A DNA stretch of 4,902 nucleotides. Source: a virus. Taxonomy: Duplodnaviria > Heunggongvirae > Uroviricota > Caudoviricetes. Shown here piece after piece: positions 2,725 to 4,902 of the stretch. Position 1 is the stretch's first letter. Every line of letters starts with the position of its first letter. Both the position numbers and the translations under genes were made by a program. Under the pieces are notes generated by a model, which was given only the letters and a program-made list of their open reading frames with translations, had not been told where the DNA came from and ran no database searches. The DNA lies in IMG/VR virus record IMGVR_UViG_2740892234_000005; one strand, 5' to 3'.

Positions 2725-3108
2725 AAGAGGTTACTGATGCGTATAGAGTTTGTTTTGCCTTACCCGCCGACGGTGAACACCTACTGGCGACGTCGTGGCA
2801 GCACATATTTTGTATCAAAAGCCGGTGAGCGTTATCGCCGGGCTGTGGCGCTTATTGTTCGCCAGCAGCGGCTGAAATTAAGCCTGTCCGGACGGCTGGC
2901 AATAAAAATTATTGCAGAACCACCGGATAAGCGCCGCCGTGACCTGGACAACATTCTGAAAGCACCGCTGGATGCGCTGACGCATGCGGAAGTGCTCATT
3001 GATGACGAGCAGTTTGATGAAATCAATATTGTGCGCGGTCAGCCTGTGCCAGGTGGACGGCTGGGCGTGAAGATTTACGAAATCAGAGGTGGTAACGATG
3101 GCGCGTGA
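2265..3108 (+). repeat. Paralogous segment B (DUF968 3' part + rusA); partner is 1-833
   Basis: See segment A. Copy B carries an intact reading frame through the A6 run at 2331-2336. Confidence 0.85.
2737..3108 (+). CDS. rusA: RusA-family Holliday junction resolvase, copy 2
   Basis: RBS AAGAGG (2726-2731) precedes ATG 2737. The 123-aa product has the same PPTVNTYW / [10 protein letters not shown] / LIDDEQF / GGRLG motifs; its C-terminal tail diverges from copy 1. Confidence 0.9.
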
Positions 3109-3469
3109 TATCCAGATGGTTCTTGAGCGATGGGGGGCATGGGCAGCAAATAATCATGAAGATGTAACATGGCCCTCGATAGCTGCTGGTTTTAAAGGAT
3201 TAATCCCGACTAAAGTGAAATCACGTCCTCAGTGTTCTGATGATGACGCCATGATAATTTGTGGTTGTATGGCACGATTAAACAAGAATAATCAGTATTT
3301 GCACGATTTGTTGGTGGATTATTACGTAGGTGGAATGACATTTATGGCTCTTGCACGTAAGCATAGATGTTCTGATGGGCTTATTGGTAAAAGGCTTTAT
3401 AAAGCGGAAGGTATTATTGAAGGAATGCTTATGGCTCTGAATGTCCGGTTAGATATGGATATGCGGTAG
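3098..3469 (+). CDS. quuD: Short antitermination protein Q (DLP12 QuuD-like)
   Basis: ATG 3098 with GAGGTGG 5 nt upstream; the 5' end overlaps the rusA stop (3106-3108). The 123-aa product ([32 protein letters not shown]..) matches my recollection of the roughly 127-aa QuuD from prophage DLP12. Not verified by search. Confidence 0.7.
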
Positions 3470-3561
3470 GGATATATAGTGATGAGGGTTATGTTTTCTG
3501 TGTTTATAATTAACATGTTTATTTTTTTGATGGTCATGTATTGTGGAAGGTAGATAAAATG

Positions 3562-3590
3562 TTGCCTGGTGAATTGAAAATATTGATAAT
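3562..3590 (+). promoter_or_regulatory. Candidate sigma70 promoter for the cargo gene: -35 TTGCCT (3562-3567), 17-bp spacer, -10 GATAAT (3585-3590)
   Basis: Found in the very AT-rich 3470-3615 spacer. An alternative perfect -10 TATAAT at 3505-3510 lacks a good -35. AT-rich DNA produces such matches by chance, so this is weak. Confidence 0.3.
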
Positions 3591-3621
3591 CAATCTTCAT
3601 CATTAAATAAAAGGAGTGCTT

Positions 3622-4440
3622 ATGTGGATTGTGTTAGTACTGTCACTGTCAACTCTCAGTTGGCATAAGGTAGTGGCTTTTTCATTGTTGACGGTGTCTG
3701 TTGTCCTGGCTGTGCTTAATGATATTATTGATTGGTCGGTGTTATTTTTTGTTGCTACAATCGTTTTTTTTATTATTTTGAAGTTCAACTGGAAATATAA
3801 CGCCTGGGCTAAATCTATATATGAAGTTGGCATAGTTTTATCAGCCATAGCATTATCTTTCCATCTATGGCCAGGGTTTCACAATCCTGTAGTGCTAAAT
3901 TCTGTTACTGTTGGCCCTCAAAGTACTCCCTATACAATGTATTTTAATTTTGATAAAGCGCTGGTGCCATTTTTGTTAGTCCTGTGTACATCTTCTTTGT
4001 TTAAAAAAGAAGTAAAATCAGAAGTGTCTTTGTGGAAGTGGGGGGCTCTGTCGCTCTCTGTTCCTCTTATCCTGTTTTTGGCTGTTTTTTTTGGTGGATT
4101 AAAGCCAGAGATTCATTTTCCTGAGTGGTTGCCAGAGTTTATATTGGCTAATTTGTTTTTTGTGTCTCTGGCAGAGGAATCATTATTTAGAGGGTATATT
4201 CAATCACGGCTATCAGAAGTAACGTCTCCATTGGTTGCATTAATTGTGGCGGCTTTGTTGTTTGGTTTTTATCACTATTCAGGTGGTGCTTTACTTGTAT
4301 TATTTGCCACGTTATCTGGTGTTGTGTATGGATTGTCATGGATGTGGAGTGGGCGTTTGTGGGTTGCCACCCTTTTCCATTTTGGTTTGAATCTGTGTCA
4401 CTTGTTATTCTTTACCTATCCATTTTTAAAACATAATTGA
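3622..4440 (+). CDS. CPBP (CAAX protease / bacteriocin-processing, Abi, PF02517-like) family polytopic intramembrane metalloprotease; prophage cargo (moron) gene
   Basis: RBS AAGGAG (3611-3616) precedes ATG 3622; the track starts at GTG 3616. The 272-aa product has roughly 8-10 hydrophobic helices. The three CPBP signature motifs sit in consecutive C-terminal helices in the canonical order: EExxxR (AEESLFRGY, nt 4174-4191), FxxxH (FGFYHY, nt 4261-4275), HxxxN (HFGLN, nt 4378-4392). The gene is AT-rich with T-rich codons, unlike the flanking phage genes. Confidence 0.8.
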   Translation: MWIVLVLSLSTLSWHKVVAFSLLTVSVVLAVLNDIIDWSVLFFVATIVFFIILKFNWKYNAWAKSIYEVGIVLSAIALSFHLWPGFHNPVVLNSVTVGPQSTPYTMYFNFDKALVPFLLVLCTSSLFKKEVKSEVSLWKWGALSLSVPLILFLAVFFGGLKPEIHFPEWLPEFILANLFFVSLAEESLFRGYIQSRLSEVTSPLVALIVAALLFGFYHYSGGALLVLFATLSGVVYGLSWMWSGRLWVATLFHFGLNLCHLLFFTYPFLKHN

Positions 4441-4578
4441 TTTTTTCTATGGTTTTAAATTTATAAGACTGAAAAATAGCAGGACGTGACATTTGCATGA
4501 AAAATATGCACGGCAAAGCATTTACGTACGTAAAAAATCAGGTATGCTGTTAAGAGTGGTTATTTCGCCGCATAGCTT

Positions 4579-4604
4579 GACCCCGCCTCTGAGCGGGTTT
4601 TTTG
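4579..4604 (+). terminator. Rho-independent terminator (tR'-like, paralogous to 1581-1606)
   Basis: Stem CCCGC (4582-4586) pairs with GCGGG (4593-4597) around loop CTCTGA, followed by TTTTTT (4598-4603). It shares the core CCCGC-CKCTGA-GCGGG-TTTTT and a nearby GCAAAGTAGC word with the copy 1 terminator. Confidence 0.7.
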
Positions 4605-4681
4605 TGCCCGCAAAGTAGCGCAGTGCGTTAAATGTGCTGGTAGTTATTAATACAGGTCTTTCAGCTTGCTGGCTTTTTCGG

Positions 4682-4709
4682 CAAGAGTTATTGGTGTGTC
4701 ACGTTAACC
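4682..4709 (+). repeat. 28-bp direct repeat, left copy (CAAGAGTTATTGGTGTGTCACGTTAACC)
   Basis: Identical 28-mer recurs at 4758-4785 on the other side of the N gap. Confidence 0.9.
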
Positions 4710-4744
4710 AAAAGGGAAAAAAGACATGCTAAAACAGCAGGATA

Positions 4745-4754
4745 NNNNNNNNNN
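4745..4754. other. Assembly gap (10 N), scaffold join
   Basis: Run of exactly 10 N, flanked by a 28-bp direct repeat. It truncates a gene that starts at ATG 4726 (MLKQQD..). Confidence 0.95.
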
Positions 4755-4757
4755 CGA

Positions 4758-4785
4758 CAAGAGTTATTGGTGTGTCACGTTAACC
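4758..4785 (+). repeat. 28-bp direct repeat, right copy
   Basis: Identical to 4682-4709. The downstream sequences are both purine-rich but diverge. Confidence 0.9.
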
Positions 4786-4902
4786 GGAAAAAGGAAAGTT
4801 TGAGAAACGCGATCTGGCACAGGCGGTTATTAATGCTGCCTACCTGGTGGCCTGTGCAGATGGTGAATGTGAGGCTTCCTAGAAAGCGAAGATCGAACAG
4901 GT

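Follow-up and report, generated by a model that had tools for sequence, protein, structure and literature searches.

The closest described relatives of the locus considered here are the late promoter regions of the Stx phages 933W and VT2-Sakai and of the Escherichia coli K-12 prophage DLP12. In 933W and VT2-Sakai the depositors have annotated the late promoter pR' over the end of the antiterminator gene Q, followed by qut and then by two terminators. In the qsr' region of the DLP12/ev207 type (quuD–nmpC porin–essD), a cargo gene of the lysogenic conversion type stands between Q and the promoter cassette: in K-12, quuD is followed by nmpC on the reverse strand and then by the cassette, 162 nucleotides (nt) ahead of essD. 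The lc porin gene of phage PA-2 represents cargo of the same kind as nmpC of DLP12. The present analysis concerns a stretch of 4,902 nt from the IMG/VR virus record IMGVR_UViG_2740892234_000005 (Caudoviricetes), referred to below as the window, and within it the region 3470-4604, where a gene for a CPBP/Abi-family intramembrane glutamic endopeptidase (CPBP; 3622-4440, 272 amino acids (aa)) lies between a Q gene of the Q21/Q933W family and a terminator-like hairpin. All window features described below are located on the + strand unless stated otherwise.

An earlier note, made from the letters of the window, had set out two layouts for this region. In the first, the late promoter lies in the AT-rich spacer behind Q, and CPBP belongs to the constitutively transcribed pR'-tR' leader; in the second, the late promoter lies behind CPBP, and the cargo gene has its own promoter outside late transcription. 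The features listed for 3470-4604, namely the Q stop, the AT-rich spacer, CPBP, the hexamer TATAAT, the pair TTGCCT-N17-GATAAT and the hairpin, were all found where the note had placed them. The first layout is not borne out in the form given, as the promoter/qut cassette specific to this Q is located at 4521-4604, downstream of CPBP. The second layout is upheld, with the late promoter TTTACG/TATGCT at 4521-4548 in a cassette orthologous to that of 933W. The order of elements is Q, cargo promoters, CPBP, pR' cassette and hairpin, and the segment from about 3470 to 4518 is very probably a moron that has entered a lambdoid prophage of the 933W/DLP12 type and now separates its Q gene from the cognate late promoter cassette.

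The cassette consists of (i) a -35 element TTTACG (4521-4526); (ii) a 16-nt spacer with the invariant block CGTAAAAA; (iii) a -10 element TATGCT (4543-4548), with a predicted start at A4555; (iv) the initial-transcribed block TAAGAGTGGTTA (4551-4562), which is near-invariant in 29 distinct cassettes, abuts the qut annotated in 933W and presumably contains the Q-loading and pause signals; and (v) the hairpin, giving the order TTTACG-N16-TATGCT-GT-TAAGAGTGGTTA-hairpin. The same elements, with a -10 of the form TATNNT, accompany a Q of the same family in 933W and VT2-Sakai, and TTTACGatcgTAAAAAtctgcaTATCATgaTAAGAGTGGTTAcattgccacgcagtcgAACCCGCCgatgcGCGGGTTTTTTT of VT2-Sakai aligns with TTTACGtacgTAAAAAatcaggTATGCTgtTAAGAGTGGTTAtttcgccgcatagcttgaCCCCGCCtctgaGCGGGTTTTTT of the window (4521-4603) base for base across the annotated pR', qut and first terminator. 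In DLP12 the cassette hexamers and the initial-transcribed block are identical to those of the window. By sequence comparison, the cassette 4521-4604 is the orthologue of the 933W pR'/qut/proximal terminator. There are also differences between these regions. The Q of 933W is longer (144 aa) and has the promoter over its end, with the motif 18 nt past the stop, whereas the Q of the window is cut back to 123 aa; past the hairpin, the 933W leader contains StxS and that of the window a small winged-helix open reading frame (ORF). In DLP12 the cargo is an opposite-strand porin with a bidirectional terminator after Q, and a holin gene directly follows the cassette, whereas the window has its cargo on the Q strand and lacks a terminator behind Q.

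A 42-nt cassette pattern, derived from 933W, DLP12 and others, matches the window only once, at 4521-4562 and with 0 mismatches (0/200 shuffles). Among 91 loci fetched through Q homology and oriented by the Q strand, 76 contain exactly one cassette, on the Q-oriented strand. The other 15 are truncated, unrelated or equipped with a diverged Q; one of them, Stx2_EH2201, has a Q with only 47-48% identity, yet a recognisable version of the cassette stands 41 nt past its stop. No second cassette or relic within 2 mismatches was detected in the spacer behind Q. The distance from the Q stop (3469) to the -35 element (4521) is 1051 nt, and the promoter does not adjoin Q. Since CPBP ends at 4440, 81 nt upstream of the -35 element, it is not contained in the pR'-tR' leader.

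Nine distance groups can be told apart for the gap between Q and the cassette when the TAAGAGTGGTTA block is measured from the Q stop, most of them with an identifiable and differing cargo. Nothing is placed in between in 933W and the Stx1 and Stx2 phages (18 nt) or in Stx2_EH2201 (41 nt). The gap of 517-528 nt is occupied by a small ORF that gave no Pfam hit and has a hydrophobic stretch at its N-terminal end, the gaps of 890-917 and 1092 nt by a gene for an ORF6N-domain protein, that of 1073-1084 nt by CPBP, that of 1558-1709 nt by a porin gene on the opposite strand, and that of 2383 nt by the porin plus IS200, while the gap of 3044 nt is composite. At least four cargo types other than CPBP are represented (loci L031, L034 and L037; L058 and L081-L088; L004, L033 and L040-L080; L066; L093). 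In the alignment of the 29 distinct cassettes, similarity between the gap classes starts within two bases of the -35 element and stops after the T-run, and the sequences both upstream and downstream are unrelated between classes. This is the signature expected of a functional unit kept together with its Q as the cargo changes on either side. Adjacency of Q and pR' is not universal in the clade, because most of the sampled relatives likewise have a gap, and the textbook rule that pR' directly follows Q often fails in the Q933W/DLP12 clade. Annotation of a "pR' region" and the design of reporter constructs are better anchored on the conserved cassette than on the Q stop codon.

The start of the late transcript can be placed from orthologous cassettes. 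In DLP12, the homologous A is position 577229 of NC_000913.3, which we take to be U00096.2 576452 (an offset of 777, made up of 776 for IS1 in crl and 1 in ylbE). K-12 Cappable-seq gives a weak + strand start at U00096.2 576452, with a relative read score (RRS) of 1.7 (Ettwiller et al., PMC4782308). In both Sakai Stx phages, the pR' start determined by differential RNA sequencing (dRNA-seq) and the tR' 3' end determined by Term-seq lie 258 nt apart (Sy et al. 2020, PMC7547250). In VT2-Sakai, the A located 7 nt past TATCAT precedes the final T of the second annotated terminator by exactly 257 nt; the 258-nt RNA and the 257-nt spacing therefore fix the start at the base homologous to A4555 of the window. 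The Sakai mapping is based on transcript length, because the published coordinates differ by 142 from those of the RefSeq version.

The AT-rich spacer (3470-3621, 152 nt, 28% GC) forms the 5' part of the cargo module and carries the cargo promoters; homology to other Q loci ends at the last Q codons. The minor promoter possesses the -10 hexamer TATAAT (3505-3510) and a start at G3517, and the main promoter, TTGCCT-N17-GATAAT (3562-3590), a start at 3597, which is 7 nt past GATAAT and 25 nt ahead of the ATG at 3622. The Shine-Dalgarno sequence AAGGAG (3611-3616) is placed 5 nt ahead of this ATG. The starts come from strain EDL933 (NZ_CP008957.1), mapped by Cappable-seq in four media, in exponential and stationary phase and with no inducer (Zehentner et al. 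2023, PMC10469882). For the CPBP gene of this genome, RS06210 (coding sequence 1264569-1265387), the main start (gTSS) at 1264544 was recorded in 8/8 uninduced conditions, with mean RRS of 24.7, 69.8, 8.3, 60.7, 65.7, 55.7, 57.6 and 108.8 (PMC10469882). The top class of that scale is >100, and the 109 reached by the main CPBP start is a high value (PMC10469882). The second start, at 1264465, is located 7 nt past the homologous TATAAT and was recorded in one condition only (PMC10469882). The ATG or the -10 hexamer belonging to the start served as reference when positions were transferred to the window, because the EDL933 run between both promoters has one T fewer.

Both spacer promoters are real and belong to the cargo. 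The proposal that they fire is confirmed by these data, and so is the expression of CPBP in lysogens independently of Q, which follows from the 3597 start in all uninduced EDL933 conditions. The opposite outcome considered in the note, namely that 3470-3615 contains no start and that CPBP mRNA depends on prior action of Q, is contradicted by the published starts. The hexamers of the main promoter are retained in 7 module variants with a divergence of up to 13%, the -35 being TTGCCT, TTGCCA or TTGTCA and GATAAT remaining invariant. Promoter-like hexamers in a spacer of 28% GC would carry no significance on their own; the window has 17 against an expected 8.2 +/- 3.3. Two weak starts inside CPBP, a sense one at about window position 3735 (+ strand, EDL933 1264682) and an antisense one at about 3933 (- strand, 1264880), were recorded in one condition each (PMC10469882). 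The predicted RNA structure of 3470-3615 (fold z = -3.0) was rejected as an accident of the AT-rich sequence; its pairing arms are not conserved in the diverged variants.

A start as strong and constitutive as that at 3597 could be read as pR' itself, since pR' promoters are constitutive by nature; the promoter at 3562-3590 would then place CPBP inside the pR'-tR' leader, with Q acting on the 3597 transcripts, and no terminator is predicted before the hairpin at 4582-4603. Such an assignment is very improbable. The spacer does not resemble the cassette associated with this Q clade, it travels across loci with CPBP rather than with Q, and an intact cassette stands 1 kb downstream of it. Moreover, the same cassette is found in relatives directly after Q or after unrelated cargo, including the porin gene, which is excluded from a forward leader because it is on the opposite strand.

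The cargo gene is annotated in RefSeq, and its product matches PF02517 with 70.6 bits (cut-off 22.4). The catalytic motifs EExxxR, FxxxH and HxxxN are all intact (EESLFR at 185, FGFYH at 214 and HFGLN at 253). The protein is a member of phrog_13291 (E=1e-182), a phage protein family of unknown function, and one source labels it "lysostaphin resistance A-like". Proteases of the CPBP/Abi family (PF02517) include the bacteriocin self-immunity Abi proteins and LyrA/SpdC of Staphylococcus aureus. The Pfam match and the three catalytic motifs are shared with these intramembrane proteases; in contrast to the bacteriocin self-immunity proteins, the prophage CPBP has no neighbouring bacteriocin gene. 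No match to CPBP was obtained with the PADLOC defence-system models, and NCBIfam gave only myxosortase-type matches far below threshold. Literature searches on CPBP/CAAX prophage genes in E. coli returned no report, experimental or other. CPBP most likely acts in the inner membrane of the lysogen as a protease or an immunity-type factor, and a role benefiting the lysogen would fit, because its expression is constitutive and independent of Q.

The cargo 3' flank (4441-4520) has 31% GC, and homology to other cassette-bearing loci begins only at 4519-4521. Together, spacer, CPBP and 3' flank form one block of 36% GC, compared with 53% for the DUF968 and RusA genes. The CPBP module was found in 572 of 5426 complete E. 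coli genomes, and each of these (572/572) also holds at least 80% of the combined Q-CPBP-cassette query. A megablast search of the phage collection revealed no sequenced phage record with the CPBP insert; the leader part alone gives matches. CPBP is very probably a moron, with its own promoter active in uninduced cells, presence or absence at one site and deviant base composition. The same features, a sigma-70 promoter active in the lysogen, low G+C and presence or absence at one site, characterize the lambdoid morons bor, lom and stx. Most described late-region morons, such as stx, are located downstream of pR'/tR' and are boosted by Q, whereas CPBP is placed upstream and outside Q-modified transcription; in contrast to autonomous morons, its module seems to borrow the late leader hairpin as terminator.

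On this arrangement, the cargo promoter in a lysogen would produce an mRNA that crosses a silent or weak pR' and extends from 3597 to about 4603, a length of about 1.0 kb. The transcript is expected to reach the hairpin because no terminator is predicted in 4441-4581, the 3' flank 4441-4520 included, and the shared hairpin at 4582-4603 is the earliest candidate; the mRNA would end there or, should the hairpin be leaky, at the terminator that follows. Upon induction, the early rightward transcription that makes Q would also read through CPBP, because no predicted terminator separates the two genes; none was found in 3470-3621. Q would then load on polymerase started at pR' (A4555) and carry it through the hairpin or hairpins into the late genes, namely the small winged-helix ORF, an AraC-like regulator, tRNAs, a NanS-type esterase and the lysis genes. 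With Q acting only on polymerase from 4555, late transcription would never include CPBP.

The position of CPBP on the same strand as Q, 152 nt downstream and with no predicted terminator in between, is also consistent with a gene that is mainly delayed-early: once the prophage is induced, it would be transcribed together with Q from the early rightward promoter, and the spacer starts would provide minor basal expression. This is possible, if somewhat doubtful, given a main start that appears in 8/8 uninduced conditions with RRS up to 109. Delayed-early transcription is compatible with the moron explanation and does not exclude it.

The hairpin CCCGC-CTCTGA-GCGGG (4582-4597), followed by T6 up to 4603, corresponds to +28 to +49 of the pR' transcript and is conserved with the cassette. 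The CPBP mRNA probably has its 3' end there, and late transcription would meet in it an initial terminator that is probably leaky. In the copy of the window considered here (copy 2, after the second Q gene), the stem has 5 bp, all G-C, compared with 7-8 bp in relatives; only five pairs are left because of an A-to-C change relative to AACCCGCC of the relatives. An alternative partner for the 3' arm GCGGG is CCCGC at 4605-4609, and this pairing is preferred in the minimum-energy fold of 4555-4612. The homologous hairpin of the Stx phages, at +27 to +49, is read through, and their constitutive transcript of 258 nt ends at the second terminator (PMC7547250). By analogy, the proximal hairpin is probably not the main late terminator. 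The designation of 4579-4604 as a tR'-like terminator holds as far as a hairpin with a T-run in a conserved cassette is concerned; its identity with tR' is uncertain, the Stx homologue being read through and tR' lying at +258.

Downstream of the hairpin, an ORF for a 65-aa winged-helix (TrmB-like) protein begins at 4737-4744, where it is cut by an N gap; in locus L001 it extends from 9638 to 9835 and ends at a stronger terminator (L001 9822-9847), 330 nt beyond the proximal hairpin in the full locus. If any gene is truly contained in the constitutive pR'-tR' leader, it may be this ORF and not CPBP. The ORF is frameshifted in EDL933. An AraC-type helix-turn-helix gene (L001 9910-10686) is located further downstream, outside the window in the late leader region, and has its own promoter ATGATA-N16-TATAAT. 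Its start at EDL933 1265979 was recorded in all eight conditions. It is thereby the second cargo gene with a promoter of its own and, unlike CPBP, lies downstream of pR'. HnrS, another late-region small RNA, of Sp9, Sp10 and Sp12, was considered and found not relevant here.

Several points weigh against the proposed arrangement. The pR' starts have been mapped at orthologous cassettes only, and A4555 (about NZ_CP008957.1:1265502) is placed by homology; the coordinate offsets of 142 for Sakai and 777 for K-12 are provisional. The pR' hexamers are weak, with 8/12 consensus matches, and were passed over by a consensus promoter scan, which is uninformative on the late promoter for this reason, and the near-identical K-12 cassette yields only the weak start mentioned above. 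Yin et al. describe the Q21 binding element as two 8-bp direct-repeat subsites. The conserved blocks CGTAAAAA and TAAGAGTGGTTA are present in the window, but no 8-bp direct repeat was recognised there, and the positions of the Q-binding and sigma-dependent pause elements are presumptive. With a five-pair hairpin and a Stx homologue that lets most transcripts pass, it is doubtful where the CPBP mRNA ends and which terminator is tR'. Finally, some hosts may no longer have a working Q/pR' system, because the EDL933 prophage copy is degraded by a frameshift and an insertion sequence (IS).

A different view is that 4521-4604 is a decayed relic in a cryptic prophage, with late transcription dead and CPBP a domesticated, autonomously expressed chromosomal gene. 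The A-to-C change that shortens the hairpin to 5 pairs, the -10 TATGCT instead of TATCAT, the frameshifted small ORF and the IS in the late region of the EDL933 copy, and the weakness of the K-12 cassette start all point in this direction. Decay of this kind is nevertheless unlikely, as the positions invariant across the cassettes (n=29) are all intact in the window, Q is full length, and a 100% identical genome keeps genes for holin, lysozyme, an Rz-type lysis protein and terminase. It would also touch only the activity of the region and leave its architecture unchanged.

The layout established here is of the same kind as DLP12 quuD-nmpC-essD with another, forward-strand cargo; it is an ordinary recurrent prophage cargo slot and no new regulatory layout. 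The CPBP gene (by its RefSeq annotation) and its start (in a supplementary table) are already known. The location of pR' after the cargo, and the presence of several distinct cargos in the Q-pR' gap of the clade, seem not to have been spelled out before. The position of the late promoter is very probably settled for a prophage widespread in enterohaemorrhagic and enteropathogenic E. coli (EHEC/EPEC), and CPBP, constitutive in the lysogen and outside Q control, becomes a candidate lysogenic-conversion or protection factor. A further idea, for which the probability is low, is that the Q-pR' gap of the Q933W/DLP12 clade is a dedicated and recurrent cargo slot, in which constitutive transcription from 3597 across the Q-binding region and pR' to the shared hairpin damps or tunes pR' firing, Q loading and the leader RNA. 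If this were true, transcriptional interference would couple the expression of a lysogen-fitness gene to the late-gene threshold, and in Stx relatives to toxin expression.

The Q gene of copy 2 (3098-3469 as RefSeq coding sequence in the 100% identical genome; the ORF is open from GTG at 3089) encodes a protein of 123 aa belonging to PF06530, the "Q21/Q933W family" in the naming of Yin et al. The match to PF06530 covers 117/118 model positions (E=4.5e-52), and that to the Q21 structures 6P18/6JNX has E=7e-8. Amino acid identity is 79% to the Q of 933W/VT2-Sakai and 86% to QuuD of K-12 DLP12. The protein is full length, the conserved core finishing with ...LDMD two codons ahead of the stop. Q933W has 23 more residues past ...LDMD, and their codons overlap its own pR' -35 element; the Q of the window has two more codons and then the stop. 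A recombination joint is situated in the last Q codons (window 3460-3469; L003 2860-2938). Q itself has 42% GC, compared with 53% for the DUF968 and RusA genes just upstream, and the drop in composition therefore begins inside Q and not at the cargo boundary.

The window is composed of three contigs joined by N10 runs at 1837-1846 and 4745-4754. Both the first and the second contain the terminal part of a lambdoid early-right operon, with a DUF968 nuclease, RusA and then a Q antiterminator. Up to 4744, copy 2 shows 100% identity with a prophage of E. coli 2013C-3264; with prophages of O157:H7, O55:H7, O145:H28, O111 and further attaching-effacing lineages, the identity is about 99.7%. Sp10 of Sakai was rejected as its counterpart, as it is not the same prophage. 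As had been described, a promoter-like pair TTGCAA-N17-TATATT (1503-1531) and a hairpin (1585-1606) come after the Q stop of copy 1 (1498); a StxS-type leader and a second terminator (1789-1817) are also present. The two "copies" stand on different contigs, and their Q proteins come from unrelated families, that of copy 1 (830-1498) being PF06323, the Q82 family, and that of copy 2 PF06530. The hairpin blocks 1585-1617 of copy 1 and 4582-4613 of copy 2 are identical at 29/33 positions with one gap and constitute the sole local similarity between the two post-Q regions; with this identity, the earlier label of a paralogous terminator, separated from Q by CPBP in copy 2, is a fair one.

An Rfam scan of the window gave only sub-threshold chance matches, none of them for the leader. 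The copy-1 leader (1583-1836), the second terminator at 1789-1817 included, shares 85.7% identity with the leader of 933W/VT2-Sakai from which the small RNA StxS arises. This StxS-type leader follows a Q of the Q82 family (PF06323), whereas Sy et al. link StxS to the 144-aa Q933W type. The third contig opens with a near-repeat of the copy-2 leader (CGRCAAGAGTTATTGGTGTGTCACGTTAACC; 4755-4797 versus 4679-4716), which indicates that the contig breaks fall in sequence common to several prophages.

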